Assembly: GCA_024639325.1 (NCBI GenBank) | Contig: JAHEIO010000007.1 | Span: forward strand, 4,679-68,678 | Direction: 5' to 3' | DNA length: 64,000 bases | DNA from: Gammaproteobacteria bacterium | GTDB taxonomy: Bacteria > Pseudomonadota > Gammaproteobacteria > Arenicellales > JAANXG01 | Shown here: one piece after another, positions 4,418 to 61,549 of the stretch | Layout: every line of letters starts with the position of its first letter | Numbering within the stretch: the first letter of the stretch is position 1 | Translations under genes and position numbers: made by a program | Notes under the pieces: generated by a model | The model's database searches: none | Seen by the model: only the letters and a program-made list of their open reading frames with translations | What the model was told of the DNA's origin: nothing

Positions 4418-5570
4418 TGCCGCTCACCTGCCTTGCCGCTGATTCCGTGCGCCGGTATTCACGCATGCGGTCGATAAATGTGTCGAAAAGATAAACGACA
4501 TCGTGAGGACCCGGGCTGGCCTCCGGGTGCCCCTGAAAAGAAAAGGCGGGACGATCGGTGCGCCGAATGCCCTGAACGGAGCCATCGAACAGAGACCTGT
4601 GCGTCAATTCCAGATTGGCAGGCAGTTCATCGACCATAAATCCGTGATTCTGGCTGGTTATGAGGACCTGGCCACTGGCTATGTCCTGAACGGGATGGTT
4701 TGCGCCGTGGTGCCCAAATTTCATCTTGACCGTTGTCGCGGAGGACGCCAATGCCAGCAGCTGGTGGCCGAGGCAGATCCCGAAGACCGGCACTGCCTTA
4801 TTCACGATCTCCCCGATAGACTGGATTGCGTAGTGACAAGGTTCCGGATCGCCGGGACCATTCGACAGGAATACACCATCCGGGCGCCGCGCAAGCACCA
4901 GTGCCGACGGCGTGGTGGCAGGCACGACGGTGACTTCGCAGCCTCGATCGACCAGCAGGCGGAGTATATTGCGCTTGATGCCGAAGTCGTACGCCACGAC
5001 CTTGTATAGCGAGGGCGGTGAATCGCGATAGCCGCCGTCCAGATCCCAGCCGCCCTCGGACCAGTTATAGATCCGGTCTGTGGTCACTTCCCGGGCGAGA
5101 TCCATGCCTTTCAGTCCGGGAAACGAGCGCGCTTGTGCAACGGCGGCTGCCGGATCGATGTGTTCACCCGCCACGATGCAACCGCGCTGCGCCCCGTGTT
5201 CGCGTATCAGCCGGGTCAGCCTGCGCGTATCGATGTCCGCGATCGCGACCCGTTCGTGTTGGACCAGAAAATCCGACAGCGTGCCTTCGGCGCGCCAGCT
5301 GCTTACCCGTCTGGGGACATTCCGCACGACCAGTCCCGAAGCGTGTATGCGATCCGATTCGTAGTCCTCCGTGTTGGTCCCGGTGTTGCCGATGTGCGGG
5401 CAAGTCAATGTAACGATCTGGCGGGCATATGAAGGGTCGGTGAGGATCTCCTGGTATCCGGTCATGGCGGTGTTGAACACTACTTCTCCGACCGTGCTTC
5501 CCTCTACGCCGATGGACACCCCGTTAAACAAGGTCCCGTCTTCCAGAGCCAGTAGAGCCTTAGCTATCAA
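4410..5570 (-). CDS. carA: carbamoyl-phosphate synthase small (glutamine amidotransferase) subunit
   Basis: 386 aa with a CPSase small-chain N-domain and a class-I GATase region (GICLGHQLL ... HHGANHP). Confidence 0.97.
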
Positions 5571-5619
5571 GATGTGCCTGTGTACCGTTCAACCGTTGAT
5601 GGGTATCTGGCGTCCACCC

Positions 5620-5652
5620 AAAAAAAGGGAGAAACCCGTTCGAGTTTCTCCC
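5620..5652 (-). terminator. rho-independent terminator downstream of dapB
   Basis: On the minus strand: GGGAGAAAC / 8-nt loop / GTTTCTCCC followed directly by TTTTTTT. It begins 25 nt after the dapB stop. Confidence 0.65.
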
Positions 5653-5677
5653 GTTGGTATCGTGTCTGCCGCTGTCA

Positions 5678-6511
5678 TTAACGTGATGATTTTAAATCAG
5701 AAGCGCTCCCGGAGCAATTGAGACCGAGCACGTCCTGCATATCGAACAGACCGCGTTCATGCTGCATGCACCATATTGCCGCGCGCACCGCGCCGCTGGC
5801 AAATGTCATCCGACTGGAAGACCGATGGGTTATCTCTATGCGCTCGCCGTCACCGGCGAGCAGCACACAGTGTTCCCCGACGATATCTCCTCCGCGGACG
5901 CTGGAAAAACCGATCGCAGACCGGTGCCTTGGCCCGGCCCGACCCCGACGTCCGTAAACCGCGTGATCATCCAGGTTCCGGTCGAGCTCCGATGCGACGA
6001 TCTCGCCGAACCTCAACGCCGTACCGGAAGGGGAATCCACCTTATGCCGATGGTGTGCTTCGATGATTTCGATATCGAAATCATTACCCAGCGTGCGCGC
6101 CGCAACCCCGGCAAGGTGAAAGCACAGGTTTACCCCGACGCTCATGTTCGGTGCCATGACAATTGCAATCTCTCCGGATAGTTCGCGAACCCGTTCCTTA
6201 TCCGGGTCAGCGAGGCCGGTGGTGCCGATTACCATGCGCCGGCCCCTGGCACGGCAGTGTTCCGCGTGATTCAAAGTTGCTCCCGGCGTGGTGAACTCGA
6301 TCAGAACGTCGAAAAATTGTTCCGCCAGTTCCGAGTCGATGGCAACGCCGAGACCGCCGACGCCGGCCACAACGCCCGCATCCAGGCCCAAAGAATCCGA
6401 AGCCTCGCGTTCTACCGCGCAACTCAATTCAACATCCGGGTTGGCATGCACGGCCTGCACTACGCAACGACCCATGCGTCCCGCAGCACCCGTCACCGCC
6501 AGCTTGATCAT
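5678..6511 (-). CDS. dapB: 4-hydroxy-tetrahydrodipicolinate reductase
   Basis: 277 aa with a Rossmann N-terminus (MIKLAVTGAAGRMGR) and the DapB signature EAHHRHKVDSPSGTA. Confidence 0.95.
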   Translation of the reverse strand: MIKLAVTGAAGRMGRCVVQAVHANPDVELSCAVEREASDSLGLDAGVVAGVGGLGVAIDSELAEQFFDVLIEFTTPGATLNHAEHCRARGRRMVIGTTGLADPDKERVRELSGEIAIVMAPNMSVGVNLCFHLAGVAARTLGNDFDIEIIEAHHRHKVDSPSGTALRFGEIVASELDRNLDDHAVYGRRGRAGPRHRSAIGFSSVRGGDIVGEHCVLLAGDGERIEITHRSSSRMTFASGAVRAAIWCMQHERGLFDMQDVLGLNCSGSASDLKSSR

Positions 6512-21815: not shown

Positions 21816-22823
21816 ATGACCCGTTTCTTGCCTGTGCTCATCCTGGCCCTGTTTTGCTCGGTATCCGTCGCGACCCATGCCGCGGAGAAGACAGAGTTAG
21901 TGGTTTATACCTATGATGCTTTTGCCGCGGATTGGGGCCCTGGACCGAAAATCAAGCAGGCGTTCGAGACCGGGTGCGACTGCATCGTGGAATTTGTATC
22001 GATGGATTCCTCAATCGGCATACTCAGAAAAATTCAACTCGAAGGTGAAACGACCGATGCCGATGTGGTACTCGGCCTCGATACCAATCTGACCGCGATC
22101 GCCGCCAGGACGGGATTGTTCGCTCCAGTCGACGACAGGGTGGGCAACTTCAGTTTGCCGATCGAATGGAACGACCCGATATTCGTGCCATTCGATTTCG
22201 GATATTTTGCATTCGTTTTCAATCGGGACATAGTTAAAAATCCACCGACTTCGTTCGAAGCGCTGGCGGCTATGCCCGACGATTTCAAGATTATCATTCA
22301 GGATCCCCGGGCCAGCACACCCGGTCTTGGGCTGCTATTGTGGGTGCAAGCAGCCTACGGCGACAAAGCCGTCAATATTTGGCAGCGGCTGGCGCCGAAG
22401 ATACTCACCATCACCAAAGGCTGGTCGGAGGCTTATGGCCTGTTTCTGAAAGGTGAGGCTGAGATGGTTTTATCCTACACGACCTCACCCGCCTATCATC
22501 TGATAGCGGAAGGCGACGATAGTTTTGACTCTGCCGCGTTCGAAGAAGGCCACTACCTCCAAATCGAGGTGGCGGCTGTATTGAAATCATCCAGCAAGCA
22601 GGAACTCGCCAGAGAGTTCCTGGCGTTCACCTCGACCGATGCATTCCAAAGCATTATTCCAACCACGAACTGGATGTTTCCAGCCGTACAAACCGCAACG
22701 CCTCTGCCGGCGGGTTTCTCCACTCTTCGCTATCCGAAAAAATCCTTGCTGATTGACAGTGCCGAGGTCGAGCGAAACCACAAGCAGTGGACAACCGAAT
22801 GGCTACGCGCAATCAGCAGGTAA
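21816..22823 (+). CDS. thiB: thiamine ABC transporter periplasmic binding protein
   Basis: 335 aa, colinear with E. coli TbpA/ThiB (VYTYDAFAADWGPGPKIKQAFE, DVVLGLDTNL, FVPFDFGYFAFVF, DPRASTPGLGLLLW, GWSEAYGLFLKGEAEMVLSYTTSPAYH). Has a signal peptide. Confidence 0.92.
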   Translation: MTRFLPVLILALFCSVSVATHAAEKTELVVYTYDAFAADWGPGPKIKQAFETGCDCIVEFVSMDSSIGILRKIQLEGETTDADVVLGLDTNLTAIAARTGLFAPVDDRVGNFSLPIEWNDPIFVPFDFGYFAFVFNRDIVKNPPTSFEALAAMPDDFKIIIQDPRASTPGLGLLLWVQAAYGDKAVNIWQRLAPKILTITKGWSEAYGLFLKGEAEMVLSYTTSPAYHLIAEGDDSFDSAAFEEGHYLQIEVAAVLKSSSKQELAREFLAFTSTDAFQSIIPTTNWMFPAVQTATPLPAGFSTLRYPKKSLLIDSAEVERNHKQWTTEWLRAISR

Positions 22824-22883: not shown

Positions 22884-25631
22884 TCAGGCTTTCAGCGAAC
22901 GGCGCGTCAACGCCTGTCGAAAAAGTGCCAGCGTGGACTGTTCGATGGAGGATGCGCTGACAAGCATAGCGTCGTCGAGGTTGAGCGCGGCCCGCGGCCC
23001 ATGGTCAGCGATGAGCCGGATCAGCGCAGAGGCATTCCGATAAGCGGCGTGGGAGTCGGCTACGCGCCTCAACGCGGTGGCCATCGCCGCCGGTGATACG
23101 GGCTGCAGGTCGATCCCCGTATCCCACAAGCTGTCCAGAATGCATGCCGCTGCAAGGGGAGCCGGTGCGAGGTGACGCACCGGCTCTAAGCTTCGAATGC
23201 CTGCGGCGACAGCTCGTCCGACGGCTTCGGCAGAGACGAACTGCCAACACCAATCACCCTCCGGGAACACCCCGGCGGCAATCAGCGCATCGACCGTACT
23301 CTGCAATCGGTCGCGTTTGGGATGTCCCAGCACATGGGGGATGCGAATTACACGAACCGGCAGCCCCTGGTCGCCGGCTTGCCACAGCAGCGATTCGGCG
23401 GCAAGCTTCGAGCGTGAATAGGCGTCCGCGCCTGATGCCGCCAGGGGGCCGGCCAGTCGTTCGATGTGCTCGGTGCCCGAGAGCTCCTCCGACCAGGTTT
23501 GACCGCCGCCCAGCGGGAACACCGAGCTCGACGACACGTAGTGCAGAGGGAGACAGCGCCTGCCTGCGAGCCGGATCAACTCCCGCGTACCTTTCACGTT
23601 GACCGGCTCCAGCGCGGCATAGGGGGCAAACGGATCCACTACGGCGGCGAGATGCACTATCGCGTCGATTTGCTCGCCGAGCTGGTGGAACTCCGCTTCG
23701 CCGAGTCCCAACCGGGGCTGCGCCAGATCGCCGATAACGTTTGTTACACCGTCGACTTCGACCCCACGCGTAAGCGCAATGATTTTCACCTTGCCAAGCA
23801 CGTCGAACTGCCGCCGCACGGCGTTGCCGAGATGACCGTTGGCGCCGGTGAGCAGGATGGTGTGCACCGGTGGTGCCGATCTGCGTGTAATCGCGTCTGG
23901 CTCGAGAGTCGGCAAACGCCATGTTGGCTGCGGCTGCGAATGCCCCCTCAAGAAGCGCGCAAGAAGTGCGGGGCGACTGTAGGTGTAGAAATCTGCCATT
24001 GAAATGCAGCGCCCGGTTTGACGTTGCAGCGCGCCCACCAGGGTGATCGCGGCAAGCGAGTCACCTCCACGCTCGACGAAGTCGTCATCGGGGCCGATCG
24101 TGCTGTCGCCAAGAACTTCACGAAACACAGTCAGTACACGCCGTTCGATGTCCGCGCTTTCGACGCCCGCACGGTTGATCGAACTGCTGCCTGCCTTACC
24201 GGAAGCGCCCAGCCCCAACGCCGCGACGAACTCGATGAGGTTGGGCACACAGTGCGACGGCAGTCGCGCCTTCAAGAACGCGCGCACTTCGCTTGAGGAC
24301 GATGCGGCGGTTGAATTCGCCTGCCGCACGACACGCGCGGTGAGCTTACCGTGCCTTTCCTCCACCGCGGCGTCGATCACATCCGGATGGCTGACGAGTG
24401 CCGCGGAGACTTCCTGGGGATCCACCCATTGACCTCGAATCTTCACGCCGGGGTCACACCGGCCAAGCACCTGCAGGTCGCCGCTGGCGTGCATGATACC
24501 GAGATCGCCCGTATCGTAAACGCGCACCGGCACCCGGCCATCCAGCGCAAGTTCAAAAAAACGGTTTTCCGGGACGCCCTCACAGAGATAACCGACGCCC
24601 AGTCCTGCGCCTCCGACCAGAATACGGCCGGGAAGCCCGTTCGCAACCAGACGGTCACGTCGGTCGACTTCGGTCACATAGATGTCCGCGAAGTCAGCAG
24701 GTCGAAGTCGCAGAGCCCCGCCGTCAGGGTCAAACACCGCGGCCGCCACATCATGGCACTCGGCGATGGAATAAAGGTTACCGATCGCAGTGTCCGGCAA
24801 CGCAGCCCGTGCCCGCGCTACCAGCTGTGGGTGCACGATCTCGCCGCACAACACGATCAAACGCAATCGTCTGAGCGCGCGCACCGCATCCGGCACGGAC
24901 AGGCAAGCGGCGAACAATGTAGGGGTCATCATCGTACGGCTGACATCATGACGAACCAACGCGACTGCGAGCGCCCGGGGATCCCGCATCACGGCGTCCG
25001 AAATCATCAGCACCGGAATGCCATGATGCAGCGCCGGTACCGCGTCCCAGATGCCAAAGATGTTGCAGCCCACCACGTCGTCGTCACGATATGCGAACGT
25101 TGTCGAACGCCAGGCGTGAGAGTACATCGATCCGAGCTGATCGGTGATCACCGCCTTCGGCATGCCGGTGGTGCTGCCTGATGTGAGCAGGATGTGCGAC
25201 GGCTGAGAAGGGGACACATCGGGTAACTCGACTTCGCGGTCAACGGGTCGATCGCTGAGGCGAATCGCCTGAACCGTGTCAACCGACGCCGTGTCGGTCA
25301 ATACCGCGTCGAGCGACAAAACGCGCAGCACGTTGGCCATCACGATCGGCGGTAGCGAGGCGAGCGGTGCGTACAGCATACCGGCGCGCAAACAGGCAAA
25401 GTAGGTGACGACGGTTTCGACGCTGCAGTCCAGCCGCACGCCGATGCGTGCACCCGTCTGGCACCTCTGCGCGAGCAACTGCGTACGACGGTCGATCGCG
25501 TCGAGCAATCGCTCGAAGGTCAGGTACTGCTCGCGATCGACGAGGGCGACCCTGCCGGGGTCACGGCGCGCAGCCGTTTCCAGTGCGGCCATCAAATCGA
25601 GGTTAAGCACCGATGCCGCGCGGGCGATCAA
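22884..25631 (-). CDS. NRPS-like adenylation - thiolation - thioester reductase (A-T-R) enzyme
   Basis: 915 aa. AMP-binding core LLTSGSTTGMPKAV, YDTGDLG, GRCDPGVKIRGQWVDPQEV. Carrier-domain serine motif GGDSLAAI. SDR-type reductase with LLTGANGHLG and YSRSK. Confidence 0.9.
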   Translation of the reverse strand: MIARAASVLNLDLMAALETAARRDPGRVALVDREQYLTFERLLDAIDRRTQLLAQRCQTGARIGVRLDCSVETVVTYFACLRAGMLYAPLASLPPIVMANVLRVLSLDAVLTDTASVDTVQAIRLSDRPVDREVELPDVSPSQPSHILLTSGSTTGMPKAVITDQLGSMYSHAWRSTTFAYRDDDVVGCNIFGIWDAVPALHHGIPVLMISDAVMRDPRALAVALVRHDVSRTMMTPTLFAACLSVPDAVRALRRLRLIVLCGEIVHPQLVARARAALPDTAIGNLYSIAECHDVAAAVFDPDGGALRLRPADFADIYVTEVDRRDRLVANGLPGRILVGGAGLGVGYLCEGVPENRFFELALDGRVPVRVYDTGDLGIMHASGDLQVLGRCDPGVKIRGQWVDPQEVSAALVSHPDVIDAAVEERHGKLTARVVRQANSTAASSSSEVRAFLKARLPSHCVPNLIEFVAALGLGASGKAGSSSINRAGVESADIERRVLTVFREVLGDSTIGPDDDFVERGGDSLAAITLVGALQRQTGRCISMADFYTYSRPALLARFLRGHSQPQPTWRLPTLEPDAITRRSAPPVHTILLTGANGHLGNAVRRQFDVLGKVKIIALTRGVEVDGVTNVIGDLAQPRLGLGEAEFHQLGEQIDAIVHLAAVVDPFAPYAALEPVNVKGTRELIRLAGRRCLPLHYVSSSSVFPLGGGQTWSEELSGTEHIERLAGPLAASGADAYSRSKLAAESLLWQAGDQGLPVRVIRIPHVLGHPKRDRLQSTVDALIAAGVFPEGDWCWQFVSAEAVGRAVAAGIRSLEPVRHLAPAPLAAACILDSLWDTGIDLQPVSPAAMATALRRVADSHAAYRNASALIRLIADHGPRAALNLDDAMLVSASSIEQSTLALFRQALTRRSLKA

Positions 25632-25654
25632 GCCGCGTACAGATTTCCCCGGCC

Positions 25655-26404
25655 TCAGATATGCCAGGCTATGGCCTGCTCCAGTTTGTCGGCGATGGTT
25701 ACGAGACGCTCGCCGGGCTCTCCGATAATAGCCATATTTCCCTGCCCTACCGGTATCAGCATGCCTTCGAATCGGCCCTGCTCGAAGCCCTCGCGGTCTT
25801 TGAGTTTACGGCCAATCACGTAATATATGCTGACCTCGCCCCGTTCCCCTTGTATGACCGCATGCGCGACGGGCCCATGGATGGATTCCAGCGCGCACAC
25901 CTGCACGTGGAGTATCTCCCCCAAGGCTTCGAGTTCGTCGCCCATGACCTTGCCGCCAAATGACGCGAGAATCTGCGTGAAACGCTGTGCCTGTCGAAAC
26001 CGGTCGTCGTGCTCCGCCACGAAGTGATTGCCCTGCCGCTCTATGCGGGTGTGATCCACCGCGGAAACGGTCAATTGCGAGACGTATTGATTGGTGGTAT
26101 GAATCTGGTATCCGAACAGAGCGCCCAGGGTCACGGTCAGCAGTACGCTCGCCGCCAACGCCAGTTGCATGGGACGGATGCGCTTTGTTACCTGCTCGTC
26201 CTGAATCAACTGGCGCAGCTTGATCCTCGTCACCAGATCGTCCGGAACGGGTATGCGCATTGCGTCCCGGAGTTTATTGTCCATAGCACCCATGCCGTCC
26301 GCGTATTTAGCGCAATCCTCACATTCATCACGGTGTTGAAGGAAGCCTTCTTCGCGATTACCCGGCTCAGACAGGCAGATTCTTCTAAATTCAAGACAAT
26401 TCAC
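25655..26404 (-). CDS. putative membrane anti-sigma factor
   Basis: 249 aa. The N-terminal Cys/His-containing segment (MNCLEFRRICL ... HRDECEDCAKY) resembles zinc-binding anti-sigma domains. One central TM (LALAASVLLTVTLGALFGY). 4-nt overlap with the upstream ECF sigma gene. Confidence 0.6.
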   Translation of the reverse strand: MNCLEFRRICLSEPGNREEGFLQHRDECEDCAKYADGMGAMDNKLRDAMRIPVPDDLVTRIKLRQLIQDEQVTKRIRPMQLALAASVLLTVTLGALFGYQIHTTNQYVSQLTVSAVDHTRIERQGNHFVAEHDDRFRQAQRFTQILASFGGKVMGDELEALGEILHVQVCALESIHGPVAHAVIQGERGEVSIYYVIGRKLKDREGFEQGRFEGMLIPVGQGNMAIIGEPGERLVTIADKLEQAIAWHI

Positions 26405-26964
26405 GCGCCCACCTCGGTTCGCCTCTCGGCGTCTCCAGTTAAAATTTCTCTCATCTGTTTTCTGGAACGAAACAACCTGGTCATTACCGCACTGCTGCTA
26501 ATCCCCAGCGCTTCGGCAATTTCTTCACAGCTGAATCCACCAAGCACCTGCATTATCAATGGTTCACGATAGTCCTCGGGAAGCCTTGCCAGCGCCTGGC
26601 GAAGCACGAACGCCTCCGTTGACGTGTCGAAGCCGGCGCCAGCCGATGGTAATTCAGCCACATCATCGATATCCCGAATGTCCAGCCGCTTGCGTTCGAA
26701 TTGCCGCGCATATTCACGCCTGAAGATCGTAAACAGCCAGGCTTTCGCGGAATCCGCCTCGCGCAGGGAGTCGATTCCCCTCCACGCTCGCAAAAACGTT
26801 TCCTGCACCAATTCCTCCGCCTGTACACGGTTTCGGCACATCCAGTAGGCATAGCGGTACAGGTCTCCGGAGAGACCCTCGACAAGGATCTCGAATTTCT
26901 CCTGACGCGGCTTTCGCATGTCAACCGAGACCGGTTCGGACGGGTTATTCTTTCTCGAAGTCAT
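26401..26964 (-). CDS. ECF-type RNA polymerase sigma-70 family factor
   Basis: 187 aa with region 2 (AEELVQETFLRAWR ... WLFTIFRREY) and region 4 HTH (SCEEIAEALGISSSAVMTRLFRSRKQM). Confidence 0.9.
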   Translation of the reverse strand: MTSRKNNPSEPVSVDMRKPRQEKFEILVEGLSGDLYRYAYWMCRNRVQAEELVQETFLRAWRGIDSLREADSAKAWLFTIFRREYARQFERKRLDIRDIDDVAELPSAGAGFDTSTEAFVLRQALARLPEDYREPLIMQVLGGFSCEEIAEALGISSSAVMTRLFRSRKQMREILTGDAERRTEVGA

Positions 26965-27056
26965 CGCAATGCGCGGTTACGGTCCTCTCTAAGTTACAAA
27001 GACAAAATAGTCCCGGATTAGGTTCCGTTACTATAACCTTCTGTTCTGAATGCCGT

Positions 27057-27827
27057 TTATGAGTTTTCCTTCAAAAAACGGGCAATGGCTTCACAGGTGA
27101 CTCCGGGTTTGTCAGCGTGCACCCAGTGGCCCGCCCCGTGGATCGTTTCAAAGCCGGCGCCTGGAAACTTCTGCAGAACGGCCTTGCGATGCGCCGCCGT
27201 AACGTAGTCGGACTGGCCGCCGGTCACAAACAGAACCGGACCATCGAATCTCCTGCCGGAATGATCGGGAAAATCCATTAGGTCGTCATGATATTCAGAC
27301 AGCACCGGAAGATTGAGTCGCCAGCGAAATCCGCCGTTTTCCCGCACAAGGTTCTGCAGCAGGAAAAGCCTGGTCGGGGTGTCCACGATACTGCTCGACA
27401 GTATGCGGTCGGCGTCGGCCCGGCTTCTCAGTGATCCAATATCCAGATCGATCATGGCATCGATAAAACGCGTGTGGCTGTGCGGGTACCGCACCGGTGC
27501 GACATCGACGACGACGAGTCGATCGACCAGCTCGGGGTAGGTCAACGCCAGATCCATCACCGCCTTGCCTCCCATACTGTGCCCTACCCAAACCATCGGG
27601 GGATCTTCGACATTGCCAAGGGTCTCCCGCAGCGACGTACTCATATCCGCGTAAGTCATGGTACCGCCGTGAGGGGATCGTCCATGGTTGGGAAGATCGA
27701 CGGTGATGACGTGGAAACGATCGGAAAGCAGCTTTGCAACACCCCGCCAGTTCGTGTTAGAACCGAACAGCCCGTGTACCAGTACAAGCGGGGCCCCGCT
27801 GCCAAATTCTTCGTAGTGCAATTCCAT
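27057..27827 (-). CDS. alpha/beta hydrolase (YbfF-like esterase)
   Basis: PLVLVHGLFGS, nucleophile elbow GHSMGG, C-terminal GAGHWVHADKP. Start placed at the internal ATG (MELHYEEF). The ORF extends to 27914. Confidence 0.8.
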   Translation of the reverse strand: MELHYEEFGSGAPLVLVHGLFGSNTNWRGVAKLLSDRFHVITVDLPNHGRSPHGGTMTYADMSTSLRETLGNVEDPPMVWVGHSMGGKAVMDLALTYPELVDRLVVVDVAPVRYPHSHTRFIDAMIDLDIGSLRSRADADRILSSSIVDTPTRLFLLQNLVRENGGFRWRLNLPVLSEYHDDLMDFPDHSGRRFDGPVLFVTGGQSDYVTAAHRKAVLQKFPGAGFETIHGAGHWVHADKPGVTCEAIARFLKENS

Positions 27828-28003
27828 ATAACTCAAATCACCATAGCTGGACAGGGTCGTTGATGACGGCGACGCGTTCGGGCGGCCAAATATTGCCGAC
27901 CCGTCGATTCGCATTTACCCCGAATGGTTAGTATAAAGGAGCGGGATTGGATTTGGGTGCATTGGCCCCATAAACCCATGGACTAACAAAAAGATCGGCC
28001 GCC

Positions 28004-29836
28004 TTGCTAATCAATAGAACGGAACTCCCCTCCGCTAATCGAAACGACTGGAAGACGCTCTCAGCGTTGCTGCCGTATCTGAAGCAGTTTCCGGTCAGAA
28101 TCGTGCTCGCGCTGGGTCTCCTCATACTTGCGAAACTTGCCAATGTAGGTGTGCCGATCGCACTCAAGGCCGTGGTCGACGGTCTCAACGTGAGCGGCGC
28201 CGCCGTCACACTAACCATACCCATCGCTTTGCTGGTGGGATACGGTCTGCTCAGGTTCTGCACGATCCTGTTCCAGGAACTCCGTAATGCGGTTTTTGCA
28301 AAGGCATCCCAGCAGACCACCCGTCAGATCGCTCTCAAGGTATTTGAGCATCTGCATCGGTTGTCTCTTCGCTTCCACCTGGACCGGCAGACCGGCGGTA
28401 TTTCCAGAGATATCGAACGCGGCAGCCGGAGCGTCGCTCAGCTGCTCAATTTCCTGGTATTCAGCATCGCTCCGACGGTGTTCGAAATTCTCGTGGTTTG
28501 CGCAATTCTATTTTATAGCTTCGGTATCTGGTTCGCGCTGGTTACGCTCGCCACCGTTACCGTCTATTTCATCTATACCTACAAGGTTACGGAGTGGCGT
28601 ATAAAGTTCCGCGTCGATATGAATAACGCGGATTCCCAAGCCAACAGCGCCGCCGTGGATTCGCTGATCAACTATGAAACCGTGAAGTACTTTGGAAACG
28701 AAGATTTCGAGTCGCGGCGATATGACGACAACATGCAAGCATGGGAAAATGCGTCGATCAAAAATCAGGTCTCGCTATCTTTTCTCAACTGCGGCCAGGG
28801 CGTGATCATCGGTGCCGGTGTTACCATTCTTATGGTAATGGCCGCCGGCGGTGTCGTTTCCGGGGATATGACCGTGGGGGACTTCGTAATGATCAATGCG
28901 TTTCTGATTCAGCTTTACATCCCCCTCAATTTTCTCGGGACCATCTTTAGAGAGGTCAAGCACAGCCTGACGGACATGGACAGGATGTTCGCGCTGCTGG
29001 ACGAAGAAACGGAAATCAGGGACAGGCCGAAGGCTTCCGAACTGCACACGATCAATCCCGAGATCCGGTTCGACAAGGTGTGTTTTGCCTACAATCCGGA
29101 TCGGCAGATCCTGCACGACGTGGATATCGTCATCCCGCCGGGAAATAAAATTGCCGTGGTGGGATCGAGCGGGTCGGGCAAATCGACTCTTGCACGACTT
29201 TTCTATCGGTTCTTCGACGTCACCTCCGGCAGTATCAGCGTGGATGGAATCGATATTCGGGACCTGACGCAGCAATCACTCAGGTCGGCGATCGGCGTAG
29301 TACCCCAGGATACGGTGCTTTTCAACGATTCCATCGAATACAACATACGGTATGGACGTCCGGACGCCACCTTCGAGGAGATCCGGCATGCAGCCAAGCT
29401 CGCTCATCTGGATCATTTCATAGAAACTTTACCCGACGGGTACGACACCCTGGTCGGGGAGCGCGGCCTGAAACTGTCCGGTGGCGAGAAGCAGCGGATG
29501 GCAATCGCAAGGACAGTGCTCAAAAATCCCCCCATCCTCATCCTTGACGAAGCCACCTCTCAGCTCGATTCGAAATCCGAGAAAGCCATACAGAAGGCAT
29601 TGAACGAGATCGCTGAAAACAGGACGTCACTCGTGATTGCACACCGGCTGTCGACCATCATCGATGCGGATCGTATTCTAGTGCTTGAAAAAGGCCGCGT
29701 AACCGAGAGCGGCACCCACCGTGAACTGCTCGAGGCCAACGCCCACTATGCCGAAATGTGGCGCTTGCAGCAGGAGCAGAGAATGAGCAACGACGGGAAG
29801 TTCATCCAGGAGCCCGAACCCGTGCACGGCCTCTAG
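28004..29836 (+). CDS. ABC transporter, fused permease/ATPase, ABCB/Atm1-like exporter
   Basis: 610 aa with six N-terminal TM helices, Walker A GSSGSGKST, signature LSGGEKQRMAIAR and Walker B ILILDEATS. TTG start. Confidence 0.9.
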   Translation: MLINRTELPSANRNDWKTLSALLPYLKQFPVRIVLALGLLILAKLANVGVPIALKAVVDGLNVSGAAVTLTIPIALLVGYGLLRFCTILFQELRNAVFAKASQQTTRQIALKVFEHLHRLSLRFHLDRQTGGISRDIERGSRSVAQLLNFLVFSIAPTVFEILVVCAILFYSFGIWFALVTLATVTVYFIYTYKVTEWRIKFRVDMNNADSQANSAAVDSLINYETVKYFGNEDFESRRYDDNMQAWENASIKNQVSLSFLNCGQGVIIGAGVTILMVMAAGGVVSGDMTVGDFVMINAFLIQLYIPLNFLGTIFREVKHSLTDMDRMFALLDEETEIRDRPKASELHTINPEIRFDKVCFAYNPDRQILHDVDIVIPPGNKIAVVGSSGSGKSTLARLFYRFFDVTSGSISVDGIDIRDLTQQSLRSAIGVVPQDTVLFNDSIEYNIRYGRPDATFEEIRHAAKLAHLDHFIETLPDGYDTLVGERGLKLSGGEKQRMAIARTVLKNPPILILDEATSQLDSKSEKAIQKALNEIAENRTSLVIAHRLSTIIDADRILVLEKGRVTESGTHRELLEANAHYAEMWRLQQEQRMSNDGKFIQEPEPVHGL

Positions 29837-60022: not shown

Positions 60023-60424
60023 TCAGCGGTTTCGACGCTGAATCACGTCTTCGATAATACGACGAAGTTTAGCCTTGTATTCAGCGTAACGTTCTGCCTG
60101 CTCATTGGTTAACAAATCAACGATCTCTTCGTCCTTGGCCTGCGAATACTTCTGGATTTCATGGTAAAGGATGGCGTCTGACGCACCCTGGTTGATGAGT
60201 CTCTGAATCTTTTTGGAGTATTTCAGGTTGATCTCCACCAACTCCCCGGTCTGCTCCGGGTTCAGCTCAAGTACGTCCGCAAGCACCTCCGTCTGAGCCT
60301 CGGCGCGTTGCAGTGGCGTGGTAGCGTAAAATTGGTCGGCCAGACCGGGGTTTTGGGCATGAGCGGCAGCCGCTGACAACAACAGACCGCAAAAAACCAT
60401 ACAGTGCACAGAGTTTGTTTTCAT
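60023..60424 (-). CDS. periplasmic LTXXQ-motif (Spy/CpxP-like) protein
   Basis: 133 aa with a signal peptide (CGLLLSAAAAHAQ). All-helical, with two LTXXQ-type motifs (LNPEQ, LTNEQ). Confidence 0.6.
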   Translation of the reverse strand: MKTNSVHCMVFCGLLLSAAAAHAQNPGLADQFYATTPLQRAEAQTEVLADVLELNPEQTGELVEINLKYSKKIQRLINQGASDAILYHEIQKYSQAKDEEIVDLLTNEQAERYAEYKAKLRRIIEDVIQRRNR

Positions 60425-60542: not shown

Positions 60543-60730
60543 GGCAAATCGGAGTGAAAATCCACCCTCCAGCCTGCATTATACGGGCGACCACGCAGAG
60601 CGGGCCCGGCCAGGCGCTCAGGTACAATGTGCGGGTTAAAGCAGTTGCGGGGTTGACCTGGGTCATTGACGCAATCCGGTCGGCACCTTATTGTGGCCCC
60701 ACCGTAGACGGGAGTGAGAGAAAGAGACAA

Positions 60731-61549
60731 ATGAAAAGTATTCTGGTTCAGGTCGATACCAGCGTGGCATGCAGAAACAGGCTGGCTATTTCATTGGATC
60801 TGGCGCAGGCTTTCGACGCTCATCTGACGGCGCTTCACATCACGCCGTCCTACACCGTCCCGGTATATGCGGAGGCGCCCGTCGGCCCCGACATCATCGA
60901 AGCGGTAAGACAGGCCGGCCGGAACTATTCCAGCAACGCAAAAAAGCTCCTGGAAAACTCGAATACCGGCTACGGCGTCGAAACGTCTTGGCGCTCCGTG
61001 GAGGGCGACATCGTCACCTCTCTTTGCAGCCACGCCCACTGCGCCGACGTGGCGATACTCGGCCAGTACAACCCTGACGATCCCCGCGACGCGAATCCGG
61101 GTGTCGTGGAGCACGTTCTGATCGAAGCGGGCAGGCCGTGCCTGGTGGTCCCGTACATCGAGGACAGCTACGACCTGATGAGTACCGTACTGGTCGCTTG
61201 GAACGGCACGCGGGAGTCTGCCCGCGCGGTAAAGGACGCCCTGCCGATTCTGCGTAAGGCGAGACGGGTCGAATTGCTATGGATCAACCCCAAGCAAGAG
61301 CCGGATGAAAACGACGGTGGAAACGTGCGCACTTACCTTTCCCGGCACGGAATAAATGTGGAGTTGAGCCGATTGCACAACCAGGAGATCCCGGCCGCAG
61401 ACATGCTGCTGTCGCATGCGGCGGATGTTTCCGCAGAACTCATTGTCTGCGGCGCCTATGGACACACCCGCTTTCGCGAAAAAATTCTCGGCGGCGTCAC
61501 GCGGCACCTGCTCGAACACATGACCGTGCCGGTACTGATGTCTCATTAG
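60731..61549 (+). CDS. tandem-domain universal stress protein
   Basis: Start set at the internal ATG (MKSILVQVD). Two UspA-like halves, the second ending LIVCGAYGHTRFREKILGGVTRHLLEHMTVPVLMSH. Confidence 0.85.
   Translation: MKSILVQVDTSVACRNRLAISLDLAQAFDAHLTALHITPSYTVPVYAEAPVGPDIIEAVRQAGRNYSSNAKKLLENSNTGYGVETSWRSVEGDIVTSLCSHAHCADVAILGQYNPDDPRDANPGVVEHVLIEAGRPCLVVPYIEDSYDLMSTVLVAWNGTRESARAVKDALPILRKARRVELLWINPKQEPDENDGGNVRTYLSRHGINVELSRLHNQEIPAADMLLSHAADVSAELIVCGAYGHTRFREKILGGVTRHLLEHMTVPVLMSH

Follow-up and report, generated by a model that had tools for sequence, protein, structure and literature searches.

Does the extracytoplasmic function (ECF) sigma factor encoded immediately upstream of a stand-alone reductase gene in an uncultured gammaproteobacterium serve that enzyme, or did the two genes become neighbors by chance? 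The locus lies in a 64,000-nt stretch of DNA, referred to below as the window (Gammaproteobacteria bacterium, Arenicellales, JAANXG01; GenBank assembly GCA_024639325.1, contig JAHEIO010000007.1, positions 4,679 to 68,678). The window is contig C241 of G000, a metagenome-assembled genome (MAG) of 352 contigs. On its minus strand a sigma gene and an anti-sigma gene are followed by a gene for a nonribosomal peptide synthetase (NRPS)-like protein with adenylation, carrier (thiolation) and reductase domains (A-T-R). An original prediction made from the sequence alone held that the three genes are co-transcribed and that the sigma factor is dedicated to the A-T-R enzyme. Our analysis indicates that the locus is probably an old, autonomous sigma/anti-sigma operon joined by a young insert of about 3.9 kb that carries thiB and the A-T-R gene, and that read-through into the A-T-R gene is most likely passive capture and not a dedicated circuit. 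The main features are as follows.

27000-27025, minus strand: motif match to an ECF-type promoter of the sigma operon, GGAACC-N16-TGTCT, about 35 nt 5' of the sigma ATG
26401-26964, minus strand: ECF sigma factor gene, 187 aa, Sigma70_r2 and r4_2 domains only, NCBIfam PRK12517 subfamily
25655-26404, minus strand: anti-sigma gene, 249 aa, with an N-terminal zinc-type motif, one membrane span and a C-terminal DUF3379 domain
25632-25654, minus strand: gap between the anti-sigma and A-T-R genes, 23 nt to the first possible A-T-R start and too short for a promoter
22884-25631, minus strand: stand-alone NRPS-like A-T-R reductase gene, 915 aa
21816-22823, plus strand: thiB (thiamine ABC substrate-binding protein), convergent with the A-T-R gene; TIGR01276 score 372 bits, cut-off 317

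The sigma, anti-sigma and A-T-R genes were found with all the features originally described. The sigma protein is small and contains regions 2 and 4 only (PF04542 and PF08281), as expected for an ECF (group 4) factor, and it scores 212 bits against PRK12517 (cut-off 197) and 91.5 bits against TIGR02937 (cut-off 43). Its orthologs in relatives share 58 to 98% identity. The anti-sigma protein matches DUF3379 (PF11859) at 146 bits (cut-off 33) and has a single hydrophobic span at about aa 79-101. Its N-terminus carries C3 and H24-x3-C28-x2-C31 (HxxxCxxC), all four residues invariant across 8 sequences, so that it combines a motif of the zinc-binding anti-sigma (ZAS) type with a DUF3379 domain. 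The TGA stop of the sigma gene and the GTG start of the anti-sigma gene share the sequence GTGA, which gives the 4-nt overlap noted originally.

The age of the two parts was judged from gene order in relatives. Orthologs of the A-T-R gene were searched for in 41 related genomes and those of the anti-sigma gene in 19 further genomes from the same family. Segments of 17 kb taken from eight relatives were compared with the window proteins. Anti-sigma orthologs are present in 12 of the 19 genomes, and the pair occurs without an A-T-R gene in at least 10 genomes. Two genomes of the same genus (G003 and G004) and two of other genera (G005 and G006) show the order ABC exporter, alpha/beta hydrolase, sigma, anti-sigma, immediately followed by rhodanese and SCO1 genes in convergent orientation. 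The convergent gap is nevertheless variable, since in G007 and G016, from other genera, it is occupied by genes for unknown proteins and CbiM. The genes between anti-sigma and rhodanese in these two genomes (L036:13407-14117 and L038:10330-10995) include a CbiM-type cobalt/nickel permease component on the strand of the sigma operon. Next to the sigma gene in the window are genes for an alpha/beta hydrolase (27057-27914) and an MsbA-like ABC exporter (28004-29836). Both are found in relatives without an A-T-R gene and therefore neither belongs to it. Their presence qualifies the original statement that no export or tailoring genes are nearby.

The insert itself, with thiB on the plus strand and the A-T-R gene on the minus strand between rhodanese and anti-sigma, was found only in G000 and in the sister species G002 among the genomes compared. 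G002 also has the sole A-T-R ortholog among the 41 genomes (94% identity); all other matches are at most 33% identical and represent generic adenylation domains. The G002 copy has lost a short segment, which shifts its reading frame:

24741-24780, minus strand: 40-nt segment coding for the A5 core (NLYSIAECHDVAA), deleted in the G002 copy

The GC content of the A-T-R gene (63.5%) is in the top 1.2% of genome windows of the same size (genome mean 57.0%, sd 2.6). When G000 is compared with G002, the ratio of nonsynonymous to synonymous substitution rates (dN/dS) is lowest for the sigma gene (0.09), higher for the anti-sigma gene (0.23) and highest for the A-T-R gene (0.33-0.47). The A-T-R gene appears to be a recent, patchy arrival whose only ortholog seems to be broken. 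Lack of conserved synteny had been named with the original prediction as grounds for rejecting it, and that is what was observed. The idea of a dedicated sigma factor is not supported by these comparisons: the pair is found without the A-T-R gene throughout the family, the A-T-R gene is present in two of the 41 genomes, with the second copy frameshifted, and about 16 loci of the wider A-T-R clade lack the pair.

A chimeric join in the MAG could also place an unrelated gene behind the anti-sigma gene. G000 is fragmented, and its thiB is separated from thiPQ, which are on another contig. The order rhodanese-thiB-A-T-R-anti-sigma-sigma is repeated in G002, an independently assembled MAG of another species, at 95-97% DNA identity, and the anti-sigma/A-T-R junction is near-identical in the two. 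The same junction in two independent MAGs argues against a chimeric contig, and we regard an assembly artefact as extremely improbable.

How is the A-T-R gene transcribed? A search for ECF-type -35 and -10 elements, proposed as a check of the original prediction, found the motif [GA]AAC[CT]-N15/16-[TG]GTC[TG] 46-103 nt upstream of the sigma ortholog in 7 of 8 genomes. This conservation suggests a typical self-regulated ECF promoter and autoregulation of the sigma operon. The match upstream of sigma is the sole one on the minus strand between 20651 and 43962, and none lies directly upstream of the A-T-R gene in that interval. Possible A-T-R starts are TTG at 25631, GTG at 25610 and ATG at 25592, corresponding to gaps of 23, 44 and 62 nt; the 23-nt spacing given originally holds for the TTG start, and homolog N-termini allow the two longer gaps as well. 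The last residue of the anti-sigma protein coincides with that of its orthologs. The foreign DNA therefore begins at most 23 nt from the anti-sigma stop, which leaves no space for a promoter. Consensus scanning of the sigma gene, the anti-sigma gene and the gap detected no sigma-70-like promoter and no terminator, and the RNA fold predicted at the junction was no better than that of shuffled sequence (z = +0.85). A gap of 23-62 nt that contains neither a terminator nor a promoter match makes read-through the most likely way in which the A-T-R gene is transcribed. Co-transcription from the ECF promoter accounts for these findings most economically, and this part of the original prediction is likely to be right.

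Expression of the A-T-R gene could instead be unrelated to the ECF factor if the anti-sigma coding sequence harbored a separate promoter for it near its 3' end. Scanning by consensus is a crude method that would miss weak or non-sigma-70 promoters, and one homolog (L120) sits behind a different upstream gene with an 88-nt gap. The minus strand from 25632 to 26964 contains no sigma-70-like or ECF-like match, and the 3' end of the anti-sigma gene is ordinary conserved coding sequence with the same last residue as in relatives. An independent promoter is accordingly considered very unlikely.

The promoter motif was also used to scan the whole genome. The 92 matches are close to chance expectation; 9 are intergenic. 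One match lies in front of a gene that, on inspection, encodes an RpoE-like sigma factor, and the specificity of the motif may be too low for a regulon to be defined from it. Elsewhere in the window, a good match (GAACC-N15-TGTCT) is located at 60725-60749 on the minus strand, about 300 nt 5' of a Tol-like envelope gene cluster ending at 60424. This match covers the beginning of a divergent open reading frame on the plus strand and may be due to chance.

Taken together, the locus probably formed in two steps. A two-gene operon for an ECF sigma factor and a membrane-spanning DUF3379 anti-sigma factor, present across the family, is the older part and is probably self-regulated from the promoter at 27025-27000. 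A young insert then probably landed between the anti-sigma gene and its convergent neighbor, and its A-T-R gene was most likely captured passively under the ECF promoter. A foreign biosynthetic gene can in this way be wired to a stress switch by landing in the convergent gap behind an operon. As regulation the case is ordinary, since nothing in it amounts to a sigma factor reserved for the A-T-R enzyme.

We examined whether the A-T-R gene is linked to sigma factors outside this lineage. A search of 5.8 billion proteins returned about 20 relatives at 39-75% identity, followed by an abrupt drop to about 29-31%. A species-genome collection contained 17 loci at 39% identity or more, all in MAGs, with hosts in the Gammaproteobacteria/Pseudomonadales, the Latescibacterota and one member of the Gemmatimonadaceae. 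The output of a profile search of 1.84 billion representatives was dominated by giant multi-module NRPSs and did not help to size the clade. Neighborhoods of the homologs were compared by targeted tblastn, and the following neighbors were seen:

L048, L062, L064 and L065: PnuC-like transporter directly downstream
L040 and L057: amidase
L068-L070: ankyrin-repeat protein
L058: luciferase-like oxygenase
L120-L123: class-V aminotransferase upstream

The orthologous sigma pair was present in none of the 17 other A-T-R clade loci. One of them, L048, has its A-T-R gene in a string of sigma, anti-sigma, unknown gene, peptidase C15, A-T-R and PnuC genes on one strand with gaps of at most 53 nt. The ECF/zf-HC2 pair heading this string is not orthologous to the pair in the window: the sigma proteins share only 32% identity, and nothing but the zinc motif connects the anti-sigma proteins.

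Some observations weigh against passive capture of a young foreign gene. The frameshift in G002 is possibly a MAG assembly error. GC at third codon positions (GC3) of the A-T-R gene is 0.72, within the range of its neighbors, which makes the compositional case for foreign origin moderate. Consensus scans leave room for a promoter inside the anti-sigma coding region. The operon-like string in L048 is headed by an unrelated ECF/zf-HC2 pair, and recurrent ECF linkage could exceed chance. This last point bears on adaptive capture, in which metal or envelope stress would free the sigma factor and the A-T-R enzyme would then make a small molecule derived from an amino aldehyde, or a modified envelope component. 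Such a role would fit the tight attachment of the A-T-R gene to the sigma operon with no space for its own promoter, the intact G000 copy with all core motifs and dN/dS below 1, and the second, independent ECF-headed string. The arrangement is not conserved, given at least 10 genomes that have the pair alone; about 16 clade members are without any ECF pair; the pair in L048 is no ortholog of the one in the window; and the sister-species copy is frameshifted. We consider adaptive capture unlikely, and it is the second independent ECF linkage that keeps it alive at low probability. Passive capture behind an autonomous operon is the reading we prefer.

The other gene of the insert, thiB, raises a separate lead. 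It was not found in G003 or G004. The thiPQ genes of G000 are on another contig that lacks thiB, and thiB and thiP are adjacent in G001, a member of the same genus. These loci are at 21816-22823 (plus strand) in the window, at G000:C242:4175-6440, and in L051, L120 and L124. The convergent thiB/A-T-R pair recurs in the two closest homolog contexts, L124 (A-T-R 75% and ThiB 87% identical) and L120 (58% and 74%). L124 is a public contig of 2.7 kb that opens with an inverted copy of an A-T-R region corresponding to aa 370-423 of the window protein (L124:1-231). This inverted start looks like an assembly artefact, and the gene model of L124 is unreliable. In distant A-T-R homologs (39-43% identity) a PnuC-family gene follows 14-50 nt 3' on the same strand. 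PnuC-family genes were located at:

L048:10998-11615
L044:10802-11449
L046:10931-11563
L062, about 5473-6081

The PnuC-like protein is only distantly related to PnuC of solved structure (28 bits). Two kinds of vitamin-uptake component are therefore found beside members of the A-T-R clade, thiB with close homologs and PnuC with distant ones. No thiamine pyrophosphate (TPP) or other riboswitch was detected at 19.5-32.5 kb of the window (E up to 1) or in 8 homolog loci, with L062 left out. The thiamine link is an unexplained lead. It could be imagined that the whole clade makes a stress-induced amino-aldehyde or amine metabolite tied to envelope vitamin or metal uptake, and that it was recruited at least twice, independently, behind ECF switches (in the window and in L048); we find this unlikely.

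Genes for TPP-dependent enzymes were considered as partners as well. An acetolactate-synthase-like gene lies near the A-T-R gene in the window and in L058, and more distant TPP enzymes are encoded in L041 and L059. A link to such enzymes was rejected; the acetolactate-synthase-like gene of the window is native and 71-77% identical in relatives without an A-T-R gene.

What does the A-T-R enzyme do? The domain assignment, with approximate coordinates, is:

24192-25583, minus strand: A domain (AMP-binding, aa 17-349, plus AMP-binding_C)
23949-24140, minus strand: carrier domain (PP-binding, aa 498-561)
22992-23861, minus strand: reductase domain (NAD_binding_4/Epimerase, aa 591-779)

The adenylation domain scores 129 bits against PF00501 and 28 bits against PF13193. 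Its A3 (TSGSTTGMPK), A7 (YDTGDLG) and A8 (GRCDPGVKIRG) motifs and the A10 lysine (K479) are invariant in 18 family members. The carrier domain (PF00550, 47.5 bits) has the GGDSL motif with Ser525, also invariant in the 18 members. The terminal domain is a reductase of the short-chain dehydrogenase/reductase (SDR) type (PF07993, 108 bits), in which GANGHLG at aa 596-602 (G596, G599 and G602), S700-702 and YSRSK at aa 738-742 (Y738 and K742) are invariant or nearly so. Against TIGR01746 the protein scores 140 bits, below the cut-off of 213, because this subclade has lost a helix that follows the Rossmann strand. No condensation domain was found in the 915-aa protein by domain search, and no phosphopantetheinyl transferase (PPTase) gene is located near the A-T-R gene. 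The architecture described in the original prediction was thus confirmed in each of these points. One Sfp-type PPTase is encoded elsewhere in the genome, at G000:C97, and could supply phosphopantetheine to the A-T-R protein in trans.

The A5 motif of the clade is atypical (NLYSxxECHD as compared to the usual NxYGPTE) and invariant within the clade. Specificity-pocket residues were read from a HMMER alignment to LgrA and from the family alignment. They are listed below against what we take to be the GrsA position numbers:

GrsA 235: D196 (HMMER alignment and family invariants)
GrsA 236: A/V197
GrsA 239: A200 (P199 under another gap placement)
GrsA 278: T238
GrsA 299: V260
GrsA 301: C262
GrsA 322: L286
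GrsA 330: D294 (invariant)
GrsA 331: V295
GrsA 517: K479

Asp235 and Lys517 are characteristic of amino-acid-activating domains, as established by structure-function work on adenylation domains. Both equivalents are kept in the A-T-R protein, which points to a substrate of amino-acid type. The invariant Asp at GrsA position 330 might, as a speculation, pair with a cationic side chain in the substrate. We know of no published specificity code matching this pocket. The enzyme probably adenylates an amino-acid-like carboxylate and loads it onto its own Ser525 after phosphopantetheinylation by the Sfp-type PPTase; the SDR-type reductase would then probably use NAD(P)H to release an aldehyde or, after further reduction, an alcohol. 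The domain logic behind this scheme is evident from the sequence. Because the clade is small, has been seen in uncultured bacteria only and shares an unusual adenylation motif that does not vary, the substrate would represent new biochemistry.

The signal to which the sigma pair responds is a further question. DUF3379 is essentially unstudied: a full-text search turned up a single paper, in which the domain is mentioned in passing, and no signal or regulon is known for DUF3379 pairs. DUF3379 is not tied to any ECF group in the text of one article (PMC7826278). Some hints of a metal came from gene context. A SCO1 copper chaperone gene adjoins the rhodanese gene beside the sigma pair, two genes beyond anti-sigma, in 5 of 8 relatives. 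A DUF3379 paralog of G000 with 39% identity (G000:C17:11841-12542, L029) sits in a copper-resistance locus. Judged by inspection of the translations, it is flanked on one side by the 3' end of a heavy-metal-type P-type ATPase gene and on the other by a multicopper-oxidase-like gene. The product of the latter gene carries a signal of the twin-arginine translocation (Tat) type. No recognizable sigma gene was found upstream of this paralog. Within the periplasmic DUF3379 domain, seven orthologs and one paralog all have H118, C170 and H181, which form a candidate metal-binding site. The SCO1 neighbor, the invariant His/Cys/His residues and the paralog in a copper locus point to a metal or envelope signal. 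The case that DUF3379 anti-sigma factors sense metals, probably copper, is circumstantial. This metal hint is the more useful by-product of the analysis.

Comparison with known systems places each part of the locus. The sigma pair resembles other DUF3379 pairs (PRK12517 sigma subfamily) in its sigma factor with regions 2 and 4 only, the overlapping anti-sigma gene, the HxxxCxxC motif, the single span and an ECF-type GAAC...GTCT promoter that suggests autoregulation. What sets it apart is the gene for a biosynthetic enzyme that follows the pair in G000 and G002 alone. The A-T-R protein resembles stand-alone and terminal NRPS A-T-R modules that release their product through a thioester reductase, such as the A-T-R part of MxcG (myxochelin synthetase) and reductase domains of the AusA and MxaA type: it has an NRPS A domain with motifs A3, A6, A7, A8 and A10, a GGDSL carrier serine, and an SDR reductase with GxxGxxG and Ser/Tyr/Lys. 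Its best NCBIfam match is to MxcG positions 457-1323 (238 bits), and its sequence matches in PDB include LgrA, MxaA, the AusA reductase domain and carboxylic acid reductase (CAR). It lacks a condensation domain, however, and is far under the cut-offs for MxcG (238 vs 2300 bits) and AusA (151 vs 2500 bits).

CAR (NF041592), Lys2 (TIGR03443) and fungal ATRR follow the same logic, in which an acid is activated, tethered to a carrier and reduced to an aldehyde or alcohol. The A-T-R protein does not match CAR or Lys2 over full length. It reaches 76 bits against 1300 for CAR, over residues 615-770 only, and 98 bits against 1030 for Lys2, where the best stretch covers reductase residues 628-774 only. 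ATRR glycine betaine reductase has two reductase domains (A-T-R1-R2), and a single NAD_binding_4/Epimerase region was found here. The A domain also sets the A-T-R protein apart from the three enzymes: it belongs to the type that adenylates amino acids, and Asp196 and Lys479 occupy the positions of Asp235 and Lys517.

The placement of such a gene behind an ECF factor was originally called unusual. It is less so in view of sigma-AntA, an ECF sigma factor linked to NRPS-related antimycin genes (PMC7142297). What the two cases share is the physical linkage of an ECF sigma gene with biosynthetic genes related to NRPSs. The antimycin sigma factor is reportedly conserved with its cluster and has no anti-sigma partner. 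In the locus described here, by contrast, relatives do not keep the linkage but do keep the anti-sigma partner, and the evolutionary history of the sigma factor is independent of the biosynthetic gene.

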